Assembly (NCBI GenBank): GCA_951812955.1
Contig: OX638340.1
Coordinates: forward strand, 128,001 to 192,000
Length of the DNA stretch: 64,000 bases
Reading direction: 5' to 3'
From: an uncultured Gemmatimonadota bacterium
GTDB lineage: Bacteria; JAAXHH01
Shown: piece after piece, positions 5,113 to 59,263 of the stretch
Layout of the letters: each line of letters opens with the position of its first letter
Position numbering within the stretch: position 1 is the first letter of the stretch
Position numbers and translations under genes: made by a program
The notes under the pieces: generated by a model
The model's database searches: none
What the model was told of the DNA's origin: nothing
What the model saw: only the letters and a program-made list of their open reading frames with translations

Positions 5113-7719
5113 ATGATGAAGCGCCTCGCTACGCTGTTCATCCTTTACTGCGGTCTTGCTTCGTTTTCGGCGCATGCGGCTACCTCCGGCAAAGTCACGG
5201 GATTCGTCCGGGACGCGGCGACCAACGATCCGCTGGCGGGTGTCACGGTTCGCGCCGAAGGTACCGAATTGCGGGCCATATCCGGCTTGAACGGCGAGTA
5301 TTTCATCCTCAACGTTCCAGTAGGCTCCATCCGGCTCGAAGTCCAGATGATCGGTTACCTGCCAATCCGGACACAGGAGTTTACCGTTAACAGCGATCGC
5401 ACCACGCGGATCGATTTCGAACTGGAAACGACGATACTCGACCTGGCAGAGCCCGTTGCCATCACCGCGCCGAGGACCTCGATCCGGTCGGACCTGACCG
5501 CTTCGAGTGAAGTGATCGTTCCCCGTGAAATCGAGTCTCTGCCCGTAACGGATCTGTCGGACCTCATCTTTCTGCAGAACGGGGTGGTCCGGGATGCCGA
5601 AGGGAACCTGCACGTTAGAGGCGGCCGCGGGAACGAGATCTCCTATTACGTGGACGGAGCCACCCTGGAGGATCCCCTGCTGGGCGGCATGGGAACGCAT
5701 ATTCAGCTAGGCTCGGTCGAGGAACTGGTAATCAACCGGGGCGGTTTCAACGCGCAGTACGGGGAGGCCATGTCCGGTGTCGTCAATATCGTGACCCGCG
5801 AGGGAAGCGGTTCCCTGTCTGGTACCCTCAGGGCCGCGACGGCCATGCAGTCTCAATACGACCTGGCGTCGGGAGGCTTCGGCGAAACTTCGGCGGGAAG
5901 AGGTGGGCGCCTCGAGGGAATACTGAGCGGCGCGCTGCCCTGGCTCAAAGACCGTGGCGGTTACTTTCTTTCCGGCCAGGTATTGAGCGACGGGCACCAT
6001 ATCCCGCACAACAGCCGATCTCTGGCCACGGTGGCGGGCAACCTAGTGTTCAAACCCTATCCCCTAATGAAACTGAAGGTCAGCGGGCATTACTTCCGTC
6101 AGCGCCATCTTCAGTACGACCACCGCAATGAAAATGGACTATCCTACGATTTCAACCCGGACGGGCTGCCCGAACGACAGGCCCGGAGCCACGCGCTTAA
6201 CCTGTCCGTCAGCCAGAACATCAGCCCGCGTTTCTTCTATACTGCCCGGTTCTACAGGTATTCCACCAACAGCACGCTGCTCCCCTCCATGCTTACGGAC
6301 CGGTATTGGACGCAGTGGCCGGGCTACTCGCAAAACAGTCTCGGCGAGTACGACGGATCGATCTATGAATCCACCCAACTGCCCTCGGAACGATACGAGG
6401 GACTTCCCTTTACCGCTGCAGGCGATTTCTTCCCGCTCTACCGGGATACCCGGGCTACGTACCACGGGGTCCGGGCCGACCTGAGCGGTCAGATAACCTA
6501 TTGGAGCCAGATCCGGGCGGGCGCCGAAGCGCAGTGGTACCGGCTGAACTGGGACGAGAGGTCCTTTCTTCAGGCCGCGCCGCACGGCCAGAGATACTCC
6601 GTCAATCCCGTGGAAGGCGCGCTTTACTTTCAGAACAAGCTTGAAATGAGCAGGTTGATCGTCGACGCCGGACTCCGGGTGGACTACCTGGACACGAGCC
6701 AGCGGTTTTTTGTCGATCTGCCCACGGGCCAGGCGGAGCGAAGAGACAACTCGACCAAGATCCGGCTGAGTCCCCGGCTCGGTGTTTCCCACTCATTTAC
6801 GCCACGGAGCCTGCTCCGGTTCAATTACGGTTACTTCTACCAGCCGCCCGAGTTCCGGCTCGCTTACGCGAACTTGAGACGCGACTTCAGCGGAGATTCC
6901 CCGCGGCTGGGAAACCCGGACCTTGCGCCCCAGAAGACGGTGGCCTATGAGTTCGGGCTGGAGCATATGCTTACAGGGGACGTCCGCATCGGGTTTACGG
7001 CGTCCTACAAGACCATTTCCAACCTGACCTCGACGGCACAGGTCCAGTACCCCGGTGGGATGTATTACATCTTCAACAACGCGGACTTCGGCTCCGTGCG
7101 CAGCGTCGAACTGATCGTGAAACGGGACGTGTCGCGCGTGCTTTCCGGGTCCTTCAACTACACCTATTCCATCGCCCGGGGAAGCGCTTCGTCGCCCCAG
7201 GAGCACGCGCAGCAGGCCGATACCGGCGAGAGAGGCTATTTCCCGCTCGCTTTCGACCAGCGGCATACTGCGAAAGCCGTGATGAGCCTGCTTGCGCCCG
7301 AGACCATCCAGCGGCGCATCCTGGGCGTTCCGCTCAACGGATGGGGGTTGTCTATGATCGGCTACTTCGGCAGCGGCCTGCCGTACACGCCGACCAACAC
7401 CTTGCGCGAAAGTACGGCAACCGCACGGAACCAGGCGCGCCTGCCGGCCTTTGTCAATCTTGATCTCCGCGTTAAAAAGCGTTTCAAGGCCGGCGGATTC
7501 AGTTACACGCTGTTCTCGGAGGTCCGGAACGTGTTCGATCGCCGGAATGTCGTAAGCGTTTATGCCAACACGGGACGTCCGGGGGACGACGGATACACCC
7601 TGGAATCATTCTCGGGCCGTTCGGAGGAGTTTATCCGGTTGAGGCGCCTGTTGAGCCTGGATCCCCAACAGTACGCCCCACCCCGAGAAATCCGCATGGG
7701 TTTCGAAATAGGCTTCTGA
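5113..7719 (+). CDS. TonB-dependent outer-membrane receptor with an N-terminal carboxypeptidase-regulatory-like domain
   Basis: Signal peptide. CarbopepD_reg-like region (GKVTGFVRDAATNDPLAGVTV). Plug and beta-barrel regions. C-terminal aromatic residue (…EIGF). The ORF opens with TTG at 5104; ATG at 5113 or 5116 is the more likely start. Confidence 0.8.
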   Translation: MMKRLATLFILYCGLASFSAHAATSGKVTGFVRDAATNDPLAGVTVRAEGTELRAISGLNGEYFILNVPVGSIRLEVQMIGYLPIRTQEFTVNSDRTTRIDFELETTILDLAEPVAITAPRTSIRSDLTASSEVIVPREIESLPVTDLSDLIFLQNGVVRDAEGNLHVRGGRGNEISYYVDGATLEDPLLGGMGTHIQLGSVEELVINRGGFNAQYGEAMSGVVNIVTREGSGSLSGTLRAATAMQSQYDLASGGFGETSAGRGGRLEGILSGALPWLKDRGGYFLSGQVLSDGHHIPHNSRSLATVAGNLVFKPYPLMKLKVSGHYFRQRHLQYDHRNENGLSYDFNPDGLPERQARSHALNLSVSQNISPRFFYTARFYRYSTNSTLLPSMLTDRYWTQWPGYSQNSLGEYDGSIYESTQLPSERYEGLPFTAAGDFFPLYRDTRATYHGVRADLSGQITYWSQIRAGAEAQWYRLNWDERSFLQAAPHGQRYSVNPVEGALYFQNKLEMSRLIVDAGLRVDYLDTSQRFFVDLPTGQAERRDNSTKIRLSPRLGVSHSFTPRSLLRFNYGYFYQPPEFRLAYANLRRDFSGDSPRLGNPDLAPQKTVAYEFGLEHMLTGDVRIGFTASYKTISNLTSTAQVQYPGGMYYIFNNADFGSVRSVELIVKRDVSRVLSGSFNYTYSIARGSASSPQEHAQQADTGERGYFPLAFDQRHTAKAVMSLLAPETIQRRILGVPLNGWGLSMIGYFGSGLPYTPTNTLRESTATARNQARLPAFVNLDLRVKKRFKAGGFSYTLFSEVRNVFDRRNVVSVYANTGRPGDDGYTLESFSGRSEEFIRLRRLLSLDPQQYAPPREIRMGFEIGF

Positions 7720-12317: not shown

Positions 12318-12361
12318 TGGCGGCTTTACTCCGTCACCTGCGGCTTTACTCCGTCACCTGC
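12318..12361. repeat. Perfect 22-bp tandem duplication (GGCTTTACTCCGTCACCTGC ×2) in an intergenic region
   Basis: Read directly from the sequence. It lies between the GNAT gene 3' end and the DegT gene 5' end. Confidence 0.8.
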
Positions 12362-12389
12362 GGCTGTCACTACGTGCCGGCGTGAAGAC

Positions 12390-15027: not shown

Positions 15028-16383
15028 ATGTCCCAGGCACCCGATCCCTACGCACAGCTTCCCGAACACGTTAAAGACCCGCCCAAGGACCGATGGTCTA
15101 CAATCCGTCAACTGGGACCGGGCCTGCTGCTGACCGGTTCAATCGTAGGTTCCGGCGAACTCATTGCCACCACGCGACTGGGTGCCGAGGTCGGTTTCGT
15201 CGTTCTCTGGCTCATACTCCTGAGCTGCGCGGTCAAGGTACCGGTGCAAAGCGAACTCGGCCGGCACGCCATCGCCACCGGCCAGACCACCTTCGTGGCC
15301 TTCAACAAGGTGCCCGGACCGCGATTCCGGGTAACCTGGCTCGTCTGGGGAAGCCTGCTCCTCCTGCTCTGGAGCACCATGCAGGTGGGCGGCATTTTTG
15401 GAACGATGAGCCTGTCGCTGGACCTGATCTTTCCATTCTTCGGAAACACGTCCTGGCTGATTATTCTCACCTTGGTCGGCATGGGGCTCGGTCTCGTGGG
15501 ACAGTACATGACGCTGGAACGGATTACCACCCTCCTGGTGGCCCTGTTCACCTTCACGACACTGGCCAGCGCGCTGCTCCTGTTCTGGACCCCCTATGCC
15601 GTTACACCGGCAGCGCTCCTGGACGGATTGCGGTTCGCCCTCCCGTCGGACGGCGCCGTGACAGCCTTTGCCGTCTTCGGCATCACCGGTGTAGGCGCTT
15701 CCGAACTGTTGCTTTACCCGTACTGGTGCGTGGAAAAGGGCTATGCCCGGGCGGCCGGACCCCGCGACGGCAGCGCGGCCTGGCGTGAACGCGCCATGGG
15801 ATGGATCAGTGTAATGAAGAAGGACGTATGGCTGTGCATGGTCATTTACACGGTGGCGACGCTGGCCTTCTTCTTCCTCGGCGCGGCTGTGCTCCACGCC
15901 CAGGGCCTTGTTCCGGAGGGGTTCGGTACCGTGCAGATCCTTTCCGGGATGTACACCGAAACGCTGGGAAACTGGGCGTTCTACCTGTTCGGCGTCGGCG
16001 CTTTCGTAGTCCTGTTTTCGACGTATTTCGTCACCATCGTAGGCCAGTCGCGCATGCTGGCAGACGCCCTTTCGGTACTCGGCTTCATAACCTACGCGCG
16101 GCCCGAGGACAGACGCCGCGTCGTGCAGGTGATCGGTGTCCTGCTGCCCCTGGTTTACCTCGTCCTCTTCGTCTTGTGGTCCGCGCCGGTCACGATGGTG
16201 ATCTTCGGTGGACTGATGCAGACAATCCTCTTGCCAGCCATTGGATGGGCGGCGCTCTACTTCAGCCGGACCACGGCGAAGGAAGCGGGCGTCCCGCCGT
16301 CCAGGACCTTGCTGGTCGCACTGACTGCCGCCACGATCATCATGGCCGTTTTTGCCGTGTACGCCGTCTGGGTTAGACTGTAG
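15028..16383 (+). CDS. Nramp-family divalent metal cation transporter
   Basis: N-terminal GPG..LTGSIVGSGEL Nramp signature. Roughly 11 predicted TM helices. 451 aa. Confidence 0.8.
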   Translation: MSQAPDPYAQLPEHVKDPPKDRWSTIRQLGPGLLLTGSIVGSGELIATTRLGAEVGFVVLWLILLSCAVKVPVQSELGRHAIATGQTTFVAFNKVPGPRFRVTWLVWGSLLLLLWSTMQVGGIFGTMSLSLDLIFPFFGNTSWLIILTLVGMGLGLVGQYMTLERITTLLVALFTFTTLASALLLFWTPYAVTPAALLDGLRFALPSDGAVTAFAVFGITGVGASELLLYPYWCVEKGYARAAGPRDGSAAWRERAMGWISVMKKDVWLCMVIYTVATLAFFFLGAAVLHAQGLVPEGFGTVQILSGMYTETLGNWAFYLFGVGAFVVLFSTYFVTIVGQSRMLADALSVLGFITYARPEDRRRVVQVIGVLLPLVYLVLFVLWSAPVTMVIFGGLMQTILLPAIGWAALYFSRTTAKEAGVPPSRTLLVALTAATIIMAVFAVYAVWVRL

Positions 16384-16439
16384 TCAGGGCCGGACAGGAA
16401 ATGGCCACGCTGGACCGGACCCGAGGCGGGATGCCTCCC

Positions 16440-16575
16440 GATCAGACCAGGCTGGATTGCTGGTCGCGGGCACGATGGGCTTCCCGATCAGACCAGGCTG
16501 GATTGCTGGTCGCGGGCACCATGGGCTTCCCGTTCAGACCAGGCTGGATTGCTGGTCGCGGGTACGATGGGATGA
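16440..16575. repeat. 46-bp unit repeated three times in tandem; the third copy contains the real stop and last codons of the minus-strand hydantoinase-fusion gene
   Basis: Copies 1 and 2 differ at one position. Copy 3 is diverged and encodes …RDQQSSLV*. An out-of-frame ORF (16442..16843) ends with the same peptide. Confidence 0.8.
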
Positions 16576-19500
16576 GGCCCTCGACCGAGGCGGTCCGTAA
16601 CCGCCACCACCGGCGGACAGGGCGACGATGTGGTCCCCCGGCAGAATCGGTACCTCGGTTTCCTTGGACTTCAACATTCTTTCCGTGCCGTTGGATACCA
16701 CCTTGTAGCGGTGCGGCAGGCCCGGCTCGCCTCCGAACAGTCCGAAGGGAGGATTGATCACGCCGTCTCCGGCCATATTCAGTTTCGCTGGTTCGTCCCC
16801 CTCGTAGACCATTTCGAAAACCGCGCCCAGACCGCCCCGCCACGTGCCGTCTCCTCCTGATCCCGGCCTCAGGTCGTTCCGGACGATCTTGAAGGGGAAG
16901 CGCTCCTCGGTGATCTCCACGCTGGGACTCCGGATCGCCCCGGCCACGTTGACCTCGCCCACGCAGGACCAGCCGTCGTACCCCCGGGAAGCGCCTCCTC
17001 CGCCCCGTCCGAAGAAGAAATGCCAGATGAAGCGTTGGCCCGTCCGCGGGTCGCGTCCGGTGATCGCGAAACGAAGCCGCCTGGAAAACCCCGCGTTCAC
17101 GGCATCAGGCGCCACGGGCGCCAGCGCCTTGAAGACGGCCTCCACGATCTCTTCCCCGCAGTGATTGGTGCTCATGCAGACCGGCGCGGGAGGATTCGGG
17201 TTCACGATCAGACCCTTCGGGGCGATCACCTTCACCGGCCGCATGGATCCCTCGTTTTTGGGCACGTCGGAGGGCGCCATGTACATGATGGCGACGTGAG
17301 CCAGCGAGCGTGTATTGGCATAGGCGCTGTTGATGAATCCGGTGACCTGGGGACTCGAATCGCCCAGGTCTATGGTCATGTTGTCGTCCTGGACGGTGAC
17401 CCGTGCGCGGATGGGGATCGACACGGCGTCGAACCCGTCGTCGTCCAGCAGCGTTTCCCCGTAGTACACGCCGTCCCTCCAGCCGGTAATCAGTTGCCGG
17501 ATCCGCCGTTCCGCGCTGTCCAGGATGGCCGCGACGGAGGTTGTCAGGCCTTCGGTGCCGTAATCGTCGAGGAGCGACTGCAGCCGGCGGGCGGCGATCT
17601 GTACCGAACCGATCTGGGCGTGCAGGTCGCCGGTGAAGTTCTCAGCGTGTCTCACGTTGACCGCCAGCATGCGCAGCAGGTCCTCCCTTGGCCGGCCCGC
17701 TTCGTACAGCCTTACGGGAGGTATGCGAAGGCCCTCGTGGTAAAGTTCGCTGGCCGAGGGATTGTATCCACCGTGGGTTCCTCCGCCGATGTCGCTGTGA
17801 TGGGCGCGGTTGACGGCGAAAAACAGCAGGTTTCCGTCGCGGAACACGGGATAGATCGCCGTGATGTCCGGCAGGTGGCTGCCGCCGAAATAAGGGTCGT
17901 TCAGGATGAACAGATCGCCTTCGACGATGCCATCGCCGAAGTACTCGCGCACCGCTTCGACGGCCGGAGGCAGGGCGCTGATATGCACGGGTATACCCTC
18001 GCCCTGCGCCACGAGTTGACCCTCCGCGTCCAGGATCGCGGTGGAGAAGTCCCTGCTGGAGTTCAGGATCTGCGACATGGAGGTGCGGATCATGACGTCG
18101 GCCATCTCTCGGGCGATCGATTCCAGGCGGTGGCCCACGACCGAATGGGTAACCGGATCCGAGGTGGCCGATGCAGGGTCCAATGTAGCCGATGTCTGGT
18201 CCGATGTAGCCGAGACCGGGTCGGGCGTGGTGTGCGAAACGGACAGCACCATGCCCCCGTAGGAGTCGATTTCGAGCCGGTCGCCTTCTTCCACGAGTAC
18301 GGTGGTGAAGTCGGACTCCACGATGGCCGGTCCTTCGATCCCGACTCCGGGCGCCAGGTCGTCGGCCGTGAAAACGGCGGCTTCGGTCCAGGCGCCGGTG
18401 TATATCCGCCGCGTGCCCTTGCGGGCAGCAGGGGTCGATGCGGCGTTCGCTTTCTCCGGCAGGATGATGGAGGGCAGTTTCCCGGTAATTGTGGCCCGCA
18501 GTGTGACCAGGCGGACTTCCTGGTCGAGTTGATGGTAGGAGTAGAGGACCCGGTATCTTTCGTGAAACAGTGCCGCCCAGGTACGCCGGATGGCGTCGTC
18601 GACCTGGTCCAGGTCCGGGATGCTCACGTTGACTTCATAGATCTGGTCCAGGTACCGCATGTCGGCGGTGAACAGGGTGGTGATGTCATCGCCTGCCAGT
18701 CCCTGTTTCCTAAGCTGTGCGGTGCCCTGTTCCGCCATGCGGTCCATCAGCCTTCTCACTTCGTCCAGGTCGACTACGTCCAGACTGGCCGTGAATGACT
18801 GCGCATAGTCGTACCTCAGGTCGGATGCGAGCATGCCGTATGCAGAAAGCACCGGTGCCGCCGAAGGGAGATGGACCGTGCTTATGCCGGTCTTGCGTGC
18901 CACCTTGCCCACGTGAAGTCCTGCCGCGCCGCCGAAGGCCAGCAGGGAGAAGTTCCGGGGATCCCCGCCGCGCCGCACGGTCAGCAGCCGGATGCCTTCG
19001 GCCATGGCCGTGGTTACGACGTCCAGCACGCCGTGTGCGGCTTCCTCAACGGTAAGCCCCAGGGGTTTCGCCACGTGTGCCTCCAGTGCCTCTTGAGACC
19101 GGTTCGGATGCAGCAGGGTCCGCCCGCCCAGGAAATTCCCCGGATCGAGGTACCCCAGGACCAGGTTTGCGTCGGTCACCGTGGGCCGGTCGCCTCCCTG
19201 CCCGTAACAGGCCGGCCCCGGATCGGCCCCGGCGCTCTGGGGCCCCACGTGCAGGGTGCCTCCATCATCCACCCGGGCGATGCTACCGCCACCCGCCCCC
19301 AGCGTATGGAGATCGATCATCGGCACGGCGATTTTCCATCCCCCTTCGTAGTGTTCCCCCGAAACCTGCGGATCGCCGCCTTCGATCACCGAAATGTCCG
19401 TGCTCGTCCCGCCCATATCGAATCCGATGAGATTGGCCTCGCCGATCAGCCGGCCGTAGGCCACAGCGCCGCTGACGCCGCCGGCGGGACCCGAGAGTAT

Positions 19501-20316
19501 AGCCTGCACGGCCTGCCGTGCCGCGGCGTCCAGCGGTGTGACGCCGCCGTTGGAGGTCATGGTGAGTATCTCGTTCTCCAGCCCCAGTCCCGAAGTCTCT
19601 TCCTGCATGCGCCTGAGGTACCTGGCGTAGACTGGTCCCACGTAGGCGTTGACGGCCGTCGTGCTCAGCCGGTCGTATTCCTTGATCTGCGGCAGGATCC
19701 CGGAGGAGAGCGACAGGTAAAGGTCGGGATGCCGCTCCCGGATGCGTTCGCCCACGAACCGCTCATGGGACGGGTTCAGGTAGGAGAAAATCAGACACAC
19801 GGCCACGGATTCCACGCCGGCCTGTACGAGGACGTCCAGAATCTCGTCCAGCGCTTCGTCATCCACGGGCGCTTCGACGGCGCCGTCGGCGCGGACACGC
19901 TCCGCGAGCGTGCGGCGCAAAGCCCTGGGTACCAAAGGTTCCACGGGCGTCATCCGGAGATTGTACCGGTCTTCTTTCAAGCCTTCCCGAAGCTCCAGGA
20001 GGTCCCGGAAGCCCTCCGTAGTAATCAGGCCAACCCGGGCGCCCTTGCGCTCAAGCAGCGTGTTGGTCGCGACAGTGGTGCCGTGGATGAACAGGCGCGT
20101 CTGAGCCAGAAGTTCGGCAATGGGAAGACCGTAGGATCCTGCAATGTCCCGGAGCCCGTCCATCACCGCGTTGGAAGGTGCGTCGGGGGTGGATGCCGTC
20201 TTGAAGTAACGAGGCGCGGAACGACCTTCGACCACGACGAAATCCGTGAATGTCCCGCCAACGTCAATGCCGATGGAAAAGGGCTGAGGAGTGTCGTCCG
20301 TGGACCGACTATTCAT
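16534..20316 (-). CDS. Fused hydantoinase/oxoprolinase HyuA-HyuB polypeptide (5-oxoprolinase-like, ATP-dependent)
   Basis: The N-terminal half is Hydantoinase_A (FSIGIDVGGTFTDFV…). The C-terminal half is Hydantoinase_B (…GEGIPVHISALP…). They are joined by a Ser/Thr/Asp/Pro-rich linker. Start assigned to MNSRS at 20316; the ORF extends to 20424. Confidence 0.85.
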   Translation of the reverse strand: MNSRSTDDTPQPFSIGIDVGGTFTDFVVVEGRSAPRYFKTASTPDAPSNAVMDGLRDIAGSYGLPIAELLAQTRLFIHGTTVATNTLLERKGARVGLITTEGFRDLLELREGLKEDRYNLRMTPVEPLVPRALRRTLAERVRADGAVEAPVDDEALDEILDVLVQAGVESVAVCLIFSYLNPSHERFVGERIRERHPDLYLSLSSGILPQIKEYDRLSTTAVNAYVGPVYARYLRRMQEETSGLGLENEILTMTSNGGVTPLDAAARQAVQAILSGPAGGVSGAVAYGRLIGEANLIGFDMGGTSTDISVIEGGDPQVSGEHYEGGWKIAVPMIDLHTLGAGGGSIARVDDGGTLHVGPQSAGADPGPACYGQGGDRPTVTDANLVLGYLDPGNFLGGRTLLHPNRSQEALEAHVAKPLGLTVEEAAHGVLDVVTTAMAEGIRLLTVRRGGDPRNFSLLAFGGAAGLHVGKVARKTGISTVHLPSAAPVLSAYGMLASDLRYDYAQSFTASLDVVDLDEVRRLMDRMAEQGTAQLRKQGLAGDDITTLFTADMRYLDQIYEVNVSIPDLDQVDDAIRRTWAALFHERYRVLYSYHQLDQEVRLVTLRATITGKLPSIILPEKANAASTPAARKGTRRIYTGAWTEAAVFTADDLAPGVGIEGPAIVESDFTTVLVEEGDRLEIDSYGGMVLSVSHTTPDPVSATSDQTSATLDPASATSDPVTHSVVGHRLESIAREMADVMIRTSMSQILNSSRDFSTAILDAEGQLVAQGEGIPVHISALPPAVEAVREYFGDGIVEGDLFILNDPYFGGSHLPDITAIYPVFRDGNLLFFAVNRAHHSDIGGGTHGGYNPSASELYHEGLRIPPVRLYEAGRPREDLLRMLAVNVRHAENFTGDLHAQIGSVQIAARRLQSLLDDYGTEGLTTSVAAILDSAERRIRQLITGWRDGVYYGETLLDDDGFDAVSIPIRARVTVQDDNMTIDLGDSSPQVTGFINSAYANTRSLAHVAIMYMAPSDVPKNEGSMRPVKVIAPKGLIVNPNPPAPVCMSTNHCGEEIVEAVFKALAPVAPDAVNAGFSRRLRFAITGRDPRTGQRFIWHFFFGRGGGGASRGYDGWSCVGEVNVAGAIRSPSVEITEERFPFKIVRNDLRPGSGGDGTWRGGLGAVFEMVYEGDEPAKLNMAGDGVINPPFGLFGGEPGLPHRYKVVSNGTERMLKSKETEVPILPGDHIVALSAGGGGYGPPRSRASSHRTRDQQSSLV
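18130..18245. repeat. Nucleotide-level short repeats (gatgtagccga-like) encoding the low-complexity linker (…SATSDQTSATLDPASATSDPV…) between the HyuA and HyuB halves of the fused gene
   Basis: Read directly from the sequence and from the minus-strand translation. Confidence 0.6.
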
Positions 20317-20469
20317 GGGTGTTCTCCGGACCGTGTTGACGAAAAACGATCTGTGTCCTATACTATCGAAAGGCTCGTGTGAAGGGCTCGCAGAACGGAG
20401 TGCGGAAGCTGCATGCCGGAGCACGGCAGCATCCGACAGGTCCTATCGAAGATACAGCTGGACGAATAT

Positions 20470-25813: not shown

Positions 25814-26839
25814 ATGAAAATAACAGGGATCCAACTTCATCAGCCCGCGGGCCTGCTTCGTTTGCTTACCAACGCCGGGCTCGAGGGGCACTGTACGGGG
25901 GTTGCCGCATTGGGGCACGACGTCGATCGCGTGGCATCCATCCTGGTGGATACGAACCCCGTAGACCGGGAACGGACCTGGTGGGCGATGAAGGATCCGG
26001 GTGAAGGGTTGTCCGCATCCCTTCGCGCCGGGATCGACGTTGCCCTGTGGGACCTTTCCGCGAAGATCGCGGGCCGGCCGCTGTTCAGGCACCTGGGCGG
26101 ATTCAGGGCCCGCGTCCCAGTCTGCCGGGCTGGTACGGCGTCAGGCACTGATCGGACTGATCGGGCCCCCTCCGAGATCGTCCGGGAAGCGAAAGACGCG
26201 CGGCAGGCCGGGTTCGGAGCCTATCGATTCGGCATGCGGACCGACGAGACCTCGCTGATCCAGCTGATACATGAAGTGCGGGCGGCCGTGGGTCCGGAGT
26301 TCCCGTTGGTGCTCGACGGCCAGGCCCGGTGCGTAATCGACGAGGCGATACGAATCGGCAGGGCGCTCGACGAGGCGGATTATTTCTACTTCGACCGTCC
26401 CCGTCCTCCCGGAGATCACTCCGGCGGGAAACAGGTGGCCGGTGAGATCGATACGCCGACCAGCACCGAGGTGTCCAGTCCCATTGCGGCGTCTCAGGTC
26501 ATGTCGGCCGGGTCTGCCGATCACATTCGCACCGACGTGCTAAGTTGCGGCGGCTTGACGGACGTGTTGAAGTCGGCCCGCTGCGCCGAGGCCTTTGGCG
26601 CCTACTGCCATCTGCGCGGTTTCGGGATCTGTGACGGTTTCGCCCATCTGCATCTGGCCGGCGCCCTCAGAAACACGCCCTTTATCGAGATGACGGAACT
26701 CGAGACTGCATCGCCTTTTGTTCGAAACCCACCGCGGGCTGACGGCGGGTTTGTCCAATTGCCCGATCTTCCGGGCCTCGGGATGGAAGTCGACCTGGAC
26801 GCGGTAATGGATAGTACATCGGAATTGATCGAAGCATGA
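25814..26839 (+). CDS. Enolase-superfamily protein (mandelate racemase/muconate-lactonizing enzyme type)
   Basis: The DVALWDLSAKIAGRPL motif is typical of MR/MLE capping and barrel domains. The usual metal-ligand EEP motif reads FDRP here. Confidence 0.7.
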   Translation: MKITGIQLHQPAGLLRLLTNAGLEGHCTGVAALGHDVDRVASILVDTNPVDRERTWWAMKDPGEGLSASLRAGIDVALWDLSAKIAGRPLFRHLGGFRARVPVCRAGTASGTDRTDRAPSEIVREAKDARQAGFGAYRFGMRTDETSLIQLIHEVRAAVGPEFPLVLDGQARCVIDEAIRIGRALDEADYFYFDRPRPPGDHSGGKQVAGEIDTPTSTEVSSPIAASQVMSAGSADHIRTDVLSCGGLTDVLKSARCAEAFGAYCHLRGFGICDGFAHLHLAGALRNTPFIEMTELETASPFVRNPPRADGGFVQLPDLPGLGMEVDLDAVMDSTSELIEA

Positions 26840-26878
26840 TCGAAGCATGATCGAAGCACGATCCGAAGTACGATCAGG
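26827..26878. repeat. 11-bp unit GATCGAAGCAT repeated ~4 times, starting inside the last codons and stop of the upstream enolase-superfamily gene
   Basis: The gene ends …ttg atc gaa gca tga. This is followed by tcgaagcatga tcgaagcacga tccgaagtacgatcag, whose later copies are decayed. Confidence 0.75.
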
Positions 26879-28122: not shown

Positions 28123-29112
28123 ATGACTGAGAAAATACGTTGGGGCATACTCGGAACGGGCGCCATTGCCCACAAGTTCGCGGAAGCCATGGAATTCGTT
28201 CCGGATGCGGAAGTGGCGGCGGTGGGGTCGAGGGCGCGTAATACGGCGCACGCTTTCGCCGACGAGTTCGCGATACCCGGGAGGCACGAATCCTACCGGG
28301 CCCTGGCGGAAGCCCCGGATGTCGACGCGATCTACGTGGCCTCCCCGCATCCCATGCACCACGATCACACGCTGCTGTGCCTGAACGCGGACAAGGCCGT
28401 GCTTTGTGAGAAACCCTTTGCCCTCAACGCCGGGGAAGCAGAATCCATGGTTCATTGCGCAAGAGACCGGGGCCTTTTCCTCATGGAGGCCATGTGGACT
28501 CGGTATCTGCCCGCGATCGCGCAGGTACGCCGGTGGCTCGCTAAGGATGCGATCGGCGAAGTGCGCTTGATGATGGCCGATTTTGGATTCCGCGCGGGGT
28601 TCAACCCGGAAGGCCGGCTGCTGAATCCGGTGCTGGGCGGCGGTGCCCTTCTCGACATCGGCGTCTACATTGTCTCGCTGGCCTCCATGGTCTACGGAGC
28701 GCAGCCGACCCGCATCACCGCGCTCGCGGATATCGGCGAAACCGGCGTGGATGAGCAGACCACCATGGCATTTCGCTACGGTTCGGGCGCCATGGCTTCC
28801 CTGTCCTGCGCGATCCGGACCGACACGCCCAGGGATGTCCGGATCCTGGGAACAGGGGGCAGCATCCATATCCCGGCGCCCTTCTATGACGCCTGCATCG
28901 CGACGCTGAACGCGGACGGCGAAGAGCAGGTTACGGCCGAGCCCGACCGTGTGGAGAACGGATTCAAGTACGAGATCGAGGAAGCGGGCCGGTGCCTGCG
29001 GGAAGGGCTGCTCGAGAGTCCCGCGCTCCCGTTGGACGAGACCCTGGCCATCATGCGGACCCTGGACGCCGTCCGGGCGGAGATCGGGTTGGAATACCCA
29101 ATGGAGGCGTGA
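28123..29112 (+). CDS. Gfo/Idh/MocA-family NAD(P)-dependent oxidoreductase
   Basis: N-terminal Rossmann WGILGTGAIAHKF and an EKP motif (LCEKPFAL). Confidence 0.85.
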   Translation: MTEKIRWGILGTGAIAHKFAEAMEFVPDAEVAAVGSRARNTAHAFADEFAIPGRHESYRALAEAPDVDAIYVASPHPMHHDHTLLCLNADKAVLCEKPFALNAGEAESMVHCARDRGLFLMEAMWTRYLPAIAQVRRWLAKDAIGEVRLMMADFGFRAGFNPEGRLLNPVLGGGALLDIGVYIVSLASMVYGAQPTRITALADIGETGVDEQTTMAFRYGSGAMASLSCAIRTDTPRDVRILGTGGSIHIPAPFYDACIATLNADGEEQVTAEPDRVENGFKYEIEEAGRCLREGLLESPALPLDETLAIMRTLDAVRAEIGLEYPMEA

Positions 29113-29189
29113 CTCCTTTCGAGTGGAGGCGTGATTCCTTTCGAATAAAGGCATGGTTCCTATCGAGTAGAGGCGCGATCCCTTTCGAG
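29102..29189. repeat. Four decaying tandem copies of a 22-bp unit that begins with the last codons and stop of the Gfo/Idh/MocA gene
   Basis: The copies are tggaggcgtgactcctttcgag / tggaggcgtgattcctttcgaa / taaaggcatggttcctatcgag / tagaggcgcgatccctttcgag. The gene ends …P M E A *. Confidence 0.8.
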
Positions 29190-44884: not shown

Positions 44885-46240
44885 ATGGCCAATGTCCTCC
44901 TGCTCATGTCCGACGAGCACAATCCGTTCTACGCTTCAGTCTACGGCCATTCCTTCGTGCATACCCCGGCCATGGACCGGCTCGCGGAGAACGGGGTCGT
45001 CTACGAGAGCGCCTACTGTCCCTCGCCCCTGTGCACGCCCAGCAGGTCCGCCTTCATGTCGGGACGCCGGGTCCACCAGATACAGGCCTATTCCAACTGC
45101 ACAATCGGCGTGGAGCCGGATATACCGACCTATGGACGCGCCCTGGCCGAACAGGGGGTTCATTCCGTGCACGTGGGCAAGACCCACGTTTACGCTCCGA
45201 GCAGTGGACTGGGATTCCGTGAGACGCGGAACGCCGTGGAGAATATGGGCGCCGGCGATCTGGAAATCGGCCGCCGTCCTTTCCGTATCAGGCGAGCGGC
45301 CGCGGAACGGGCCACCCAGTTCGGCGTGAAAGCATCGCATCTCCGGGTCGACCTGGACCGCGTCGACGCCGCCATAGACTGGATATCAAATACCGCGCCG
45401 ACCCTGGATACGCCGTGGACGCTCTCGGTAAACATCATCCATCCCCACTTCCCCCACTATACGTCGCAGGAACTCTGGGATCTCTATCCGCAAGGCGGCG
45501 ATCTGCCGGAGTACGGGACGGATCGGGAGACTGCGAACCACCCCAGGGCACGGGAAGTCAGGGAGCACTTCCAGACGGACGCGTTCACCGAGGAACAGGT
45601 ACGGGGACAGCGGCGGGGATACCTGGCGTGCGTGACGTTCGTGGACCGGCAGCTGGCGCGGCTTATCGAAGCGCTGAAGGCATCGGGACAATACGACGAT
45701 ACGAATGTCATTTACACGTCGGACCACGGCGAAATGCTTGGAAAGTTCGGCATGTGGTGGAAGTGTTCTCTCTACGAAGACGCGAGCCGGATCCCATGCA
45801 TCGCGGCGGGACCCGATTTTCCTGCGGATCTGCGCGTGTCGACGCCGGTGGACCTCCACGATGTACAGGCGAGCCTCTTCGAATCGACCGGCGCCGACCG
45901 TCCAATCGACTGGGTGGGGCGGCCTCTGCAGAACATGCCCGAACAGGATGACCAGCGCGTCGTTTTCTCCGAATACCATGGCCACGGCGTTCGCCAAAGT
46001 GCCTTCATGATCCGAAAAGGCAGATGGAAGTACATTCACCACCTTAACGCGCCGCACCAACTGTTCGACCTGGACCGGGATCCCGATGAACTGCAGAACG
46101 TGCATGGCGCGTGCGCCGAGGTGGCCGCAGACCTGGAGCGGGAGCTCCGCGCGATCTGCGATCCGGAAGTGGAGAACGACCGCGCGGATCGATTCATTGA
46201 AACGCAACTTGCGTCCATGTCGTCGAGTGGCCCATCGTAG
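44885..46240 (+). CDS. Cys-type sulfatase
   Basis: Signature C-T-P-S-R-S-A-F-M-S-G-R and the N-terminal LLLMSDEHN motif. Confidence 0.9.
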   Translation: MANVLLLMSDEHNPFYASVYGHSFVHTPAMDRLAENGVVYESAYCPSPLCTPSRSAFMSGRRVHQIQAYSNCTIGVEPDIPTYGRALAEQGVHSVHVGKTHVYAPSSGLGFRETRNAVENMGAGDLEIGRRPFRIRRAAAERATQFGVKASHLRVDLDRVDAAIDWISNTAPTLDTPWTLSVNIIHPHFPHYTSQELWDLYPQGGDLPEYGTDRETANHPRAREVREHFQTDAFTEEQVRGQRRGYLACVTFVDRQLARLIEALKASGQYDDTNVIYTSDHGEMLGKFGMWWKCSLYEDASRIPCIAAGPDFPADLRVSTPVDLHDVQASLFESTGADRPIDWVGRPLQNMPEQDDQRVVFSEYHGHGVRQSAFMIRKGRWKYIHHLNAPHQLFDLDRDPDELQNVHGACAEVAADLERELRAICDPEVENDRADRFIETQLASMSSSGPS

Positions 46241-46285
46241 CGAGCCCATCGTAACAAGCCCATCTGAATAAGCAAACGGAGCGAA

Positions 46286-47695: not shown

Positions 47696-47745
47696 CGGCG
47701 CCTGCTGGACGAGGTGGGCCGCATCTGGCGGCGCACTCGAAAGGA
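47647..47745. repeat. Two imperfect tandem copies (~57 bp) spanning the 3' end and stop of the hypothetical gene
   Basis: Copy 1 encodes LDAVGRIWRRADRAT*. Copy 2 (ctggacgaggtgggccgcatctggcggcgcactcga) would encode LDEVGRIWRRTR. Confidence 0.7.
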
Positions 47746-47750
47746 AACCA

Positions 47751-49277
47751 ATGACCCGGCCCAACATCCTGTTCATCATGACGGACCAGCAGCGCTTCGA
47801 TACCATCGCCGCGCTGGGGAACGACGTCATCCACACGCCTAACATGGATCGCCTGGTGCGCCGGGGCGTTTCCTTTACCCGGGGCTACTCGACCTGCCCC
47901 GTCTGTGTGGCGGCGCGGACGACCATCCGCACCGGTTGTGATCCGCCCACTACCCGCGTATTCAGTAACAGCCGGTCCGCTCCTGTGCCAGGCCAGGCCG
48001 GTACGCTTGAAGGCCGGTGCGGGGACTATCTTGCACGTACCCTGTCGGCGATGGGCTACCGAACCTTCGGCGTGGGAAAGTTCCACACGGCCCCATGGGA
48101 TGAAGACATCGGATATGAATCCCAGCTGCATAGCGAGGAGCTTTACGCCAGCCCGCGTCAGCGTCGGGAGGAAGCCTACGCGGGATGGATTGCGCGGGAA
48201 CATCCGGAATTCGACTATATCGAAGCGCTCATGGGGGAACGGACTGAGATGTACTACATGCCCCAGGCGAGTCCGCTGCCCGCCCACCTGACCTTGGAAT
48301 CCTGGGCGGCCGACCGCTCGATCGAGGCATTGCAGCAACCCGGCGATCGGCCGTTCTTCGGCTTCGTGTCCTTCATCGGTCCTCATCCGCCCTTTGCGCC
48401 GCCTGTACCCTTCAATCGGATCTACGATCCCGACCGTATGCCCGGTCCGGTTCGGGGCGAAAAGGCGGTGGACCACATGGACGAGCAGATACCCTACATG
48501 AACCGGATCATCTGGGCGGACGAGATCAACGATGCCTTGACACGGACTCTAAAGGCCCGTTATTACGGAGAGATCACCTACATCGACGATTGCCTGGGAC
48601 GGATACTGGATGCCGTCGAGGCCAGGGCGGACGCCAATGATACGCTCATCTGCTTTTTCTCGGACCACGGCGACCATCTCGGCGACCATACGGCTTGGCA
48701 AAAGGAGAGTTTCTTCGACGTTTCGGCACGGGTGCCTTTCCTGGTAAGCTGGCCCGCCCGGCTTCCGCGGGATGTCCGCCGAGACGACCTGGTCTGCCTG
48801 ACCGATCTGTTTGCCATCGCCACCCATGCCGCCGGACAGACCCAGGTCCGCGACGGTGTCGACGTACTCGGCGCAATCGAAGGCAGCGTCTCGCCGAGGG
48901 AGCACCTCTTCGGATATTACGGCGAGCCGGGAACGGACCGGTTCAAAATCATGGTCCGAAGCGAAGACTGGAAATACATTTACCTGGCCAACGGAGGTGG
49001 GGAGCAACTCTTCAATACGGCCGAAGACCCCGCCGAGATCGCGAACAGGATCGAGACCGATCGGGACGTGGCGGACGGTCTGTATCGCTGTGCAGTGGAA
49101 GCATGTGGCCATCCAGGCGCTTCCGGTGCCCTGGTTGGCAAGAACCTGAGGTCCTTTCCCTACACCAGGTGGAAGGCCTCGCGGATATACCAGTTCGACC
49201 GCTCGCGGGATGTGCGGGGGTTTCCCGGTCATCCCAGCGAAGTGTTGGGTCCCTGGATCCGTCGCGGCCGCAGATAA
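47751..49277 (+). CDS. Sulfatase with a variant active-site motif C-V-A-A-R-T-T-I-R-T-G (Pro replaced by Ala)
   Basis: ILFIMTDQQRFD metal-binding N-terminus. The motif keeps the R(+4) and TG(+9/+10) spacing but has Ala at +2. The ATG at 47751 is preceded by AAGGAA. The ORF opens at 47604. Confidence 0.85.
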   Translation: MTRPNILFIMTDQQRFDTIAALGNDVIHTPNMDRLVRRGVSFTRGYSTCPVCVAARTTIRTGCDPPTTRVFSNSRSAPVPGQAGTLEGRCGDYLARTLSAMGYRTFGVGKFHTAPWDEDIGYESQLHSEELYASPRQRREEAYAGWIAREHPEFDYIEALMGERTEMYYMPQASPLPAHLTLESWAADRSIEALQQPGDRPFFGFVSFIGPHPPFAPPVPFNRIYDPDRMPGPVRGEKAVDHMDEQIPYMNRIIWADEINDALTRTLKARYYGEITYIDDCLGRILDAVEARADANDTLICFFSDHGDHLGDHTAWQKESFFDVSARVPFLVSWPARLPRDVRRDDLVCLTDLFAIATHAAGQTQVRDGVDVLGAIEGSVSPREHLFGYYGEPGTDRFKIMVRSEDWKYIYLANGGGEQLFNTAEDPAEIANRIETDRDVADGLYRCAVEACGHPGASGALVGKNLRSFPYTRWKASRIYQFDRSRDVRGFPGHPSEVLGPWIRRGRR

Positions 49278-49391
49278 GAGGCGACACGGCCGCAGATAAG
49301 AATCAGGGTGACCGGAGTTTGTCTCGGTTTTCCCCGCAATATCATTCTTGGGAATCCGCGCTCGAATCGACGAAGAGGAAGAGTTCATATC

Positions 49392-57516: not shown

Positions 57517-58302
57517 ATGGGCATGGTCCGTCTTACAGACGAGGACATCCGATTCTTCGTCCGCGAAGGCTACCTGATCAAACGCGGCGTGCTGAACCCC
57601 GACCTGATGGCCATGGGACGGGAACGCATGTGGCGGAATCTGCCGCCTCCCCTCGAACGCGGTAAACCGGCAACCTGGATCGGACCCTTTGCCGAACCGG
57701 TCGACGACGGCGCGTCCCACAGGCACAGGTTCATGTGGAAGTACCGGGAACCCGGCGGAGAGGACTGGATGTTGCGACTCCTGGCCACCGATCCTTCCGT
57801 GATGGGCATGGCGGAACAGCTCCTGGGGGAAGGAACGCTGGTCGACCCAGATCGCATCCGCGGTATTTACTGCGTCCTGCCCGAGGGCGACGCACCGCCC
57901 CGTCCCCTGGGTTGCCACGTGGACGCCCATCCCTTTCACCTCGGCGTCGTGGGATACATCGACGACGTGAGTCCGAAGGGTGGCGGATTCACCGTCTGGC
58001 CGGGCAGCCATCGGATATTCTATCCCGATTTCCCCACGCGTTACTGCTTCGAACGAACCCCCTCGTACCAGGCGCACCTGGAAGAGGTGAACCGGATGCC
58101 TTACGCAGACTGTCACGGCAATGCCGGAGACATCGTCTTCTGGCACCACCGCATGGGCCATTCAGTCGGCCACAACCGGTCCACCCGGATCCGCCAGGCG
58201 GTCCTCTACGACTACAAGCGGACGGACCTGGACGAGAACGCGCCTCCCGGCGACAACATGTGGGTGGATTGGCCCGGCGTCCGTGCCGTTTTAGCATCTT
58301 GA
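57517..58302 (+). CDS. PhyH-family Fe(II)/2-oxoglutarate dioxygenase (third paralog in the window)
   Basis: PhyH-like motifs (FFVREGYLI…HVDAHP…H). Confidence 0.75.
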   Translation: MGMVRLTDEDIRFFVREGYLIKRGVLNPDLMAMGRERMWRNLPPPLERGKPATWIGPFAEPVDDGASHRHRFMWKYREPGGEDWMLRLLATDPSVMGMAEQLLGEGTLVDPDRIRGIYCVLPEGDAPPRPLGCHVDAHPFHLGVVGYIDDVSPKGGGFTVWPGSHRIFYPDFPTRYCFERTPSYQAHLEEVNRMPYADCHGNAGDIVFWHHRMGHSVGHNRSTRIRQAVLYDYKRTDLDENAPPGDNMWVDWPGVRAVLAS

Positions 58303-58395
58303 CATGTGGGTAGACTGGCCCGGCGTCCGTGCCGTTTTAGCATCTTGACATGTGGGGTAGACTGGCCAGGCGTCCGTGCCTTACTGGCGTCTTGA
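58265..58395. repeat. 46-bp unit repeated three times in tandem, beginning inside the last codons and stop of the PhyH gene and filling the gap to the convergent MTAP gene
   Basis: Copy 1 (…ggcccggcgtccgtgccgttttagcatcttga) contains the real stop. Copy 2 is near-identical. Copy 3 is diverged. Confidence 0.85.
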
Positions 58396-58399
58396 ATCC

Positions 58400-59263
58400 C
58401 TACTCGAAGTAGCGGCCCACGATCGGCTTCAGCTTCTCCAGCGTGCCGCCGGGTACCGAATCCCGGTCGGAAACGATGGCGTTGGCCAGCGCGTTGTGAC
58501 AGCGGCACGTGCTTTCCACCGGGATGGCCGGCACCACGTGGCGGACGACCTGCCGCGCCTGTTCCACGTTGGCGTGCAGGTTCTCGATGATCATGTCGAC
58601 GGTGACGGCGTCGTGATCTTCGTGCCAGCAGTCGTAGTCGGTGGAACACGCGATCGTGGCGTAGCAGATCTCGGCCTCCCGGGCCAGCTTGGCTTCCGGC
58701 GCGGCCGTCATGCCGATGACCGAGAACCCCCAGCCCCGGTAAACGTTCGATTCCGCCCTGGTCGAGAACTGGGGTCCCTCCATGCAGAGATAGGTGCCGC
58801 CGTCATGTACCGTCAACCCCGTCGATTCAGCGCCGTCGACGAGCAGTTTGCGCAAGGGGCCGCAAAAGGGTTCGGCGAGGCCCACGTGCACGACGAGATC
58901 GTTGCCGAAGAAGCTGGTCGCGCGGTGCCGCGTATGGTCGTACAGCTGATCCGGAATGACGAAGTCCCGCGGACGTATGTGCTCCTGGAGACTGCCCACC
59001 GCGCTGACCGACAGGATCCACTGCACGCCCAGCGTCTTCAGCGCGAAGATGTTCGCCCGCACGTTAATTTCAGACGGCCCGATGCGGTGGCCGCGGCCGT
59101 GACGTGCCAGGAAAGCCACGCGCCGGCCCTCGAGGGTGCCGGTCACGATTGCGTCGCTGGGATCGCCGAAGGGGGTGGCGGGCCGGACCTCCTTGAGATC
59201 CGTCAGGCCTTCCATACCGTAGAACCCCGTGCCGCCGATAACCGCGATCTGCGCGTTCGCCAT
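58400..59263 (-). CDS. mtnP: S-methyl-5'-thioadenosine phosphorylase
   Basis: MANAQIAVIGGTGFY…, a PNP/MTAP family-2 N-terminus and conserved body. 287 aa. Confidence 0.88.
   Translation of the reverse strand: MANAQIAVIGGTGFYGMEGLTDLKEVRPATPFGDPSDAIVTGTLEGRRVAFLARHGRGHRIGPSEINVRANIFALKTLGVQWILSVSAVGSLQEHIRPRDFVIPDQLYDHTRHRATSFFGNDLVVHVGLAEPFCGPLRKLLVDGAESTGLTVHDGGTYLCMEGPQFSTRAESNVYRGWGFSVIGMTAAPEAKLAREAEICYATIACSTDYDCWHEDHDAVTVDMIIENLHANVEQARQVVRHVVPAIPVESTCRCHNALANAIVSDRDSVPGGTLEKLKPIVGRYFE

Follow-up and report, generated by a model that had tools for sequence, protein, structure and literature searches.

Bacterial minisatellites, or VNTRs, are tandem repeats of approximately 10-100 bp that arise from slipped-strand mispairing or unequal recombination. 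[quoted passage not shown]

In prokaryotic genomes, a recent survey found that tandem repeats are enriched downstream of stop codons (PMC12418385), and MIRU ends have been described as overlapping the adjacent genes (PMC3184786; PMC12548453). For animal mitochondria, tandem duplication has been invoked to account for intergenic gaps and gene rearrangements (e.g. PMC5370444, PMC5122201). Our literature search found no bacterial paper on stop-spanning gene-end duplication as a source of spacers.

Here, we analyze three head-to-tail 46-bp units in an uncultured Gemmatimonadota bacterium, located in a 64-kb window (the whole stretch of DNA under analysis) between a fused hydantoinase/oxoprolinase gene and a convergent transporter gene. 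In keeping with bacterial VNTRs, the units stand head to tail with a constant period of 46 bp and no spacers or other intervening unique sequence, are highly identical to one another, and number three or one among relatives. They differ from typical VNTRs in that the unit visibly comes from the coding end and stop codon of the adjacent gene, and in that the three copies are stable in four assemblies rather than hypervariable. Given the enrichment downstream of stops found by the survey (PMC12418385), the location of the array is not unusual. MIRUs are of similar size (~40-100 bp), form intergenic tandem arrays and make contact with gene ends, but the unit described here occurs at one locus (as far as the 64-kb window and a 30-mer scan of JGI metagenome contigs extend), is locally derived, is flanked by convergent genes and has no sequence relationship to the other arrays of the window. 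DGRs likewise have a repeat of a gene's 3′ end just downstream of it, whereas at the present locus the copies adjoin one another directly and measure only 46 bp. For the evolutionary process, spacer formation by duplication and decay in mitochondria is the closest analogy, although the genome type and replication system are different, and at the present locus only the last ~12 codons were duplicated, leaving gene order unchanged.

Anatomy of the array and its derivation from the gene end

The fused gene (16534..20424, minus strand; hereafter hyuAB) had been named a fused hydantoinase gene in an earlier note made from the sequence alone, and both Pfam and homologues agree, with Hydant_A_N, Hydantoinase_A, Hydant_A_C and Hydantoinase_B, and thus HyuA and HyuB domains, found in a single ORF of 1296 aa. 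The Hydantoinase_B profile is matched end to end (1-519 of 519), up to residue 1279 of 1296, and the true start probably lies at 20337, which would give 1267 aa as in the closest homologues. The gene ends in ...GGGGYGPPRSRASSHRTRDQQSSLV before its stop, and the protein in ...HRTRDQQSSLV, with the TGA at 16534-16536. On the other side, an Nramp-family transporter gene (15028..16383, plus strand) is convergent with hyuAB, its stop facing the array across 150 nt.

A tail of the form ...SR(D)xSSRxRDx(E/Q)S(G/S)L(V/A), followed by the stop, is conserved in ~30 Gemmatimonadota-type orthologues at 79-97% identity, most of which are free of any array, indicating that the in-frame copy is ancestral and that the array was made from it. 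The PDB homologues 6yra_B and 7hk5_A run ~40-55 residues further and had suggested a C-terminus truncated or replaced by the array, a possibility ruled out by the retention of the short tail across the whole clade and by the complete Pfam HyuB match. Stop-codon readthrough or selenocysteine insertion is rejected as well, since the stop at this position is TGA, TAG or TAA depending on the orthologue. Further upstream in hyuAB, near the start of the Hydantoinase_B match (~residues 735-758), lies an in-frame, imperfect repeat of 21 bp (7 codons), present in 3.4 copies in the window (18152..18222), 3.7 in the relative L001 (8104..8180) and 4.4 in the relative L002 (8095..8186).

The array occupies approximately 16434-16573 of the window. 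TRF reports a single array at 16436..16571 with a period of 46, 3.0 copies, 95% matches, 0% indels and a score of 251, the highest in the window, while a repeat search places three copies at 16433-16570 with start-to-start spacings of 46 and 46. The two agree on the 46-bp ×3 array of the earlier note, whose coordinates and base counts hold. With ≤3 mismatches allowed, a 34-mer of the unit finds three matches in the 64-kb window, namely the tandem copies, and none in 100 dinucleotide-preserving shuffles.

On the gene strand, the cleanest register of the duplicated segment (S) runs CCCATCGTG...TCTGATCGGGAGG, also given as CCCATCGTG...CTGGTCTGATCGGGAGG. The 46-nt unit comprises the last 35 coding nt and the TGA stop (together the 38 bases of the gene end), plus 8 nt of 3′ flank. 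The ancestral context is CAT-S-CATCCCGCC, and the novel junction, AGG/CCC, has a microhomology of ≤1 nt. Each unit also carries GACCAG-N9-CTGGTC, a 6-bp inverted repeat or small hairpin.

In this register, copy 3 (16526..16571, minus strand) is gene-proximal and, with the TGA of the gene and the C-terminal motif conserved in orthologues, forms the real 3′ end of hyuAB. Copy 2 (16480..16525, minus strand; TGA at 16488-16490, in the +1 frame relative to the gene) and the distal copy 1 (16434..16479, minus strand; TGA at 16442-16444, in the third frame) are non-coding. The earlier note had placed copies 1 and 2 beyond the stop and a single base apart, had taken copy 3 for the true gene end and had concluded that the duplication copied coding sequence, all of which stands. 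Alignment of the three units, which it had proposed as a check, gives one difference between copies 1 and 2 in its own register (G/C at 16474 versus 16520), and mismatches at 3/46 positions between copies 3 and 1 on the gene strand.

Copy 3 also carries a lineage-specific G>A change that replaces Ala with Thr (ACC at 16561-16563), and copy 1 retains the ancestral HRARDQQSSLV version found in close relatives. With Ala (GCC) in both non-coding copies and in all close relatives, versus Thr (ACC) in the working copy of the window, the dead copies preserve the older state and form a small molecular fossil of the ancestral Ala codon.

As the period of 46 equals 3n+1 and there are three copies, the three TGAs fall in three frames and each frame ends in ...RDQQSSLV: besides the gene itself, the minus-strand ORF 16442..16843 ends in ...HRARDQQSSLV at the TGA of copy 1, and the remaining frame in ...HGARDQQSSLV at the TGA of copy 2. 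The earlier note had offered the overlapping ORF as confirmation that coding sequence was copied; the same peptide does appear in another register, but its evidential value is trivial, since it follows from the 3n+1 period. For the same arithmetical reason, the presence of one tail in all three frames is no evidence of design, and such a device is also not reproduced in a second 46-bp array of the window (58256..58380), in which a 1-nt insertion returns the third copy to frame 0.

Between copy 1 and the Nramp gene lies an older part of the spacer (16384..16433, minus strand) that is common to the single-copy relative L004. It contains CCACGCTGGA at 16405-16414, a weak gene-end-like stretch that is possibly a decayed earlier gene-end copy, though suggestive only. 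For a fourth, older copy within the 58-nt spacer, statistical support is weak (p=0.04 in L004 and p=0.006 in the relative L021), and nhmmer did not detect one there.

The syntenic loci of relatives were recovered through the fused protein. Three copies are present at the same locus in L001 (ENA ERZ24894576 ctg49590l, a 629-kb contig), L002 (GCA_001753035.1) and L003 (JAPOOT010000031.1, isolate APA_bin_41), with point changes particular to each array and a 1-nt deletion common to L002 and L003. L004 (OY762445.1, a complete 3.9-Mb chromosome), which shares ~97.5% nucleotide identity with the window over the last ~1 kb of the gene and 98% identity over the C-terminal 399 residues, has a single copy. 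The comparison with relatives proposed in the earlier note was thus informative: the array is genuine, comes from coding sequence and varies in copy number among close relatives. The closest relatives, in the set L003-L029, are uncultured Gemmatimonadota MAGs, some of them recorded as Latescibacterota, and isolate names such as APA_bin_41, IRC1_bin_16, SB0665_bin_8 and Plut_88884 suggest, as names can, sponge or coral hosts.

We consider it likely that the array is a bacterial minisatellite of the VNTR type, formed by neutral tandem duplication of a 46-nt gene-end segment that spans the stop. We infer a mutational mechanism, and neutrality with it, in which a first duplication by replication slippage or illegitimate exchange over this segment would have been followed by unequal exchange between the two existing copies, yielding the third. 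Since the stop codon lies within the unit, the ribosome meets the native tail and stop in the first copy and terminates there; the protein stays as it was, which is why the duplication is tolerated, and both copies further downstream are non-coding. The net effect is a longer spacer to the convergent Nramp gene, from ~58 to 150 nt.

Gene-end copies at the same junction and elsewhere in the window

Across ~24 orthologous loci, the hyuAB/Nramp spacer is variable, ranging from -4 nt, where the stops overlap, up to 155 nt. Overlapping stops (CTAG or TTAA, i.e. TAG/CTA or TAA/TTA; spacer -4) are found in six loci (L006, L008, L013, L015, L018 and L028); this compact arrangement is probably ancestral and would have given rise to the spacers, as long as 155 nt, of sister lineages. 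A nhmmer profile of orthologous gene tails detects decayed gene-end copies in the spacers of L029 (E=1.4e-9), L012 (E=2.3e-6) and L009, which has two (E=7.9e-7 and 2.7e-4), in addition to a weak 12-nt match in L027 (E=0.029). By eye, the L012 copy, the L029 copy and the second L009 copy look homologous. At least three separate duplication events are counted at this junction, or four if L027 is included, with periods of ~22, 39, 46 and 56 nt. The spacer downstream of hyuAB in L007 (~5260..5355) contains two copies of a different, ~34-nt repeat, CTTCGGnCCGGTCCGGCGCGGGACCGCTCAACG, which is not derived from the gene end.

In the window itself, the second 46-bp array (58256..58380; 2.7 copies; TRF score 220) repeats the last 14 codons and stop (MWVDWPGVRAVLAS before the stop) of a PhyH-family dioxygenase gene (57517..58302, plus strand), which is convergent with a PNP_UDP_1 phosphorylase gene (58400..59263, minus strand). 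Relatives form a series at this junction, running from a single copy in L034 and L035-38, where the spacer is 3-4 nt, through two in L032 and L033 to 2.7 in the window. Within a genome, the copies have lineage-specific variants in common, a pattern suggestive of gene conversion or repeated unequal exchange. The hyuAB/Nramp and the PhyH/PNP junction both have a period of 46.

Three shorter arrays (26826..26875, 29104..29189 and 46230..46273; periods 11, 22 and 14) each begin in the last 3-4 codons of a plus-strand gene (ending at 26839, 29112 and 46240, respectively) and include its stop. A stop codon is spanned by five of the nine non-coding arrays of period ≥11 in the window, and a uniform ORF-preserving model predicts 1.1 such arrays (P=0.0015), or 1.9 (P=0.02) without divergent spacers and one large gap, the test being post hoc and built on nine arrays, rough gene calls and a crude model. 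As a lead rather than a result, this excess hints at a bias not anticipated under pure neutrality; part of it could stem from slower decay, a persistence bias that operates when one copy is under coding constraint. Apart from these arrays, a stretch of 1.6 kb (47696..49307) has no ORF that passes the crude GC3-based gene call, and it may hold an RNA gene, a gene of atypical composition or a pseudogene.

Such recurrence raises the question of whether duplication of 3′ ends, stop included, is itself biased or selected in this Gemmatimonadota lineage, with a preference for tightly abutting, especially convergent, gene pairs, rather than being random mutation filtered by selection. To this reading, we give only a small chance. 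It is pointed to by the at least three junction events in ~24 genomes, the 1/2/2.7 series at PhyH/PNP, the shared 46-bp period, and the five of nine arrays against 1-2 expected. Head-on transcription or replication conflict at overlapping stops might then be the trigger; spacers would be made repeatedly from nothing, new copies being gene-proximal and older ones decaying distally, and gene conversion would sometimes keep the copies alike. Returning to the neutral minisatellite that we prefer, gene-end duplication appears to be one of the common ways in which tightly packed genes of the lineage acquire spacer DNA.

Tests for function and for known classes of element

Scanning both strands of 15900-17000 returned no terminator-like site (hairpin plus T-run), and no promoter-like site was found in the terminator/promoter scan of the array region. 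Rfam 15 covariance models gave no match on either strand of 16000-17000 at E≤1, and the array folds no better than its shuffled versions on both strands (z-scores of -0.4 and -0.3). Together, the folding scores, the terminator scan and Rfam rule out a structured RNA or terminator. The repeat search reported no inverted repeats in the array at default thresholds.

No dispersed copies of the unit (≤3 mismatches) exist in the 64-kb window beyond the three tandem ones, and an exact 30-mer of the unit matched only the L002 contig itself among JGI metagenome contigs, which argues against a dispersed MIRU/REP-like family. A MIRU is also contradicted by the orientation of the flanking genes, which are convergent (hyuAB minus, Nramp plus) rather than co-directional operon genes with a bridging small ORF, and REP/BIME palindromes by the stem of only 6 bp per unit, folding equal to shuffles and lack of dispersal. 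A CRISPR array does not fit, as the copies abut, the period equals the unit length and there are no unique spacers. Finally, a DGR VR/TR pair is rejected because no reverse transcriptase occurs among the called genes within ±6 kb in syntenic relatives, and because none of the three mismatches between copy 1 and copy 3 (G/T, G/A and T/A) has A in the non-coding copy.

When the window, L001 and L002 are compared, 4/82 columns vary in the coding end, 11/100 within the extra copies and 8/47 elsewhere in the spacer; the last two regions are indistinguishable in substitution constraint (Fisher p=0.31). The array shows no sign of function in these sequence-level tests and is probably neutral, a judgment drawn from absence of evidence.

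A selected cis-element, in which the extra copies are kept to space out or insulate the two convergent genes, seems quite unlikely to us. Variants of this reading would make the copies a non-canonical terminator or RNA-polymerase collision buffer, hairpins that stabilize the 3′-UTR, or sites of antisense pairing between the convergent transcripts. Exactly three copies are present in four assemblies that differ by ~1-4% in flanking DNA, steadier than in a highly mutable VNTR, and some would read this as maintenance; however, L004 manages with one copy, and several lineages do without any spacer. The 6-bp inverted repeat in each unit speaks for a cis-element, but it comes with no hairpin-plus-T-run terminator, no folding beyond shuffles and no Rfam family. 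Spacers at this junction in other lineages have repeatedly been built from gene-end copies, starting from overlapping stops, and stop-spanning arrays exceed the expectation of the uniform model, yet in L009, L012 and L029 decay has brought the older copies down to ~73% identity, like unconstrained DNA, and the substitution rate of the extra copies is no lower than elsewhere in the spacer. Between lineages with only 86% identity in their PhyH proteins, the extra copy at the PhyH/PNP junction still reaches 83%, a similarity that gene conversion or repeated unequal exchange explains equally well.

Gain or loss of copies among close relatives, and the significance of the array

The single copy of L004 is directly followed by TCGGGAGGAATCCCGCC, the sequence found after copy 1 in the window, and its flank reads TCGGGAGG(A/C)ATCCCGCC; as sequence, these flanks are exactly those that would be expected of a pre-duplication, or collapsed, state. 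A GGGAGG>GGGAAG change at the copy 3/copy 2 junction is common to the window, L001 and L002, indicating a single origin of the array. Over 3.9 kb upstream, shared derived sites join the window and L002 against L004 by 25 to 5 to 1, which makes the single-copy L004 the outgroup, while the signal over 4 kb downstream is mosaic. Overall, these comparisons favor a gain of the array after the split from L004.

Alternatively, the array may have been ancestral to the species-level group, L004 having lost two copies by inter-repeat recombination, a history that we regard as improbable. Such a loss, by deletion between copies 3 and 1, would restore the single-copy sequence exactly, and the first 1 kb downstream groups L004 with the window (6 derived sites) in preference to a position beyond the three-copy genomes (2 sites), with 16 versus 13 over the 4 kb. 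The upstream 25:5:1 ratio nevertheless favors L004 as outgroup, the last ~1 kb of the gene puts it outside as well (97.4-97.7% for pairs with L004 versus 97.6-98.7%), and the more distant relatives L005, L010 and L021 have single ends. A repeat mis-expanded in the assembly of the window is barely credible, given that the three-copy array recurs in three further assemblies from different projects, with its own substitutions in each, and that the three copies of the window differ mutually, unlike assembly stutter.

A perfect 20-bp intergenic repeat between acetyltransferase and DegT-type aminotransferase genes (12320..12365) is present in 2.3 copies in the window and 3.8 in L002 (13962..14036), and was not detected in L001 by TRF at a score ≥40, a threshold at which arrays of about two copies or fewer are missed. 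It looks like another copy-number-variable locus in the lineage.

On its own, the array matters little, with the protein unchanged and no sign of function: it is an ordinary gene-end tandem triplication of an already known kind, probably neutral. Its presence as one versus three copies could serve as a strain-typing marker for this Gemmatimonadota group. Interest is slightly raised by the recurrence at the same junction and by the possible genome-wide preference for stop-spanning duplications. The locus offers a clean, dated example of how a compact bacterial genome can gain intergenic DNA where convergent genes abut or overlap: the gene's own end, copied past the stop, becomes the spacer. Older, decayed cases are found at this junction in sister lineages, and a second case at another junction of the window. 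If an excess of stop-spanning duplications were to hold genome-wide, it would point to a bias, mutational or selective, that acts at the 3′ ends of genes and is not currently emphasized for bacteria.
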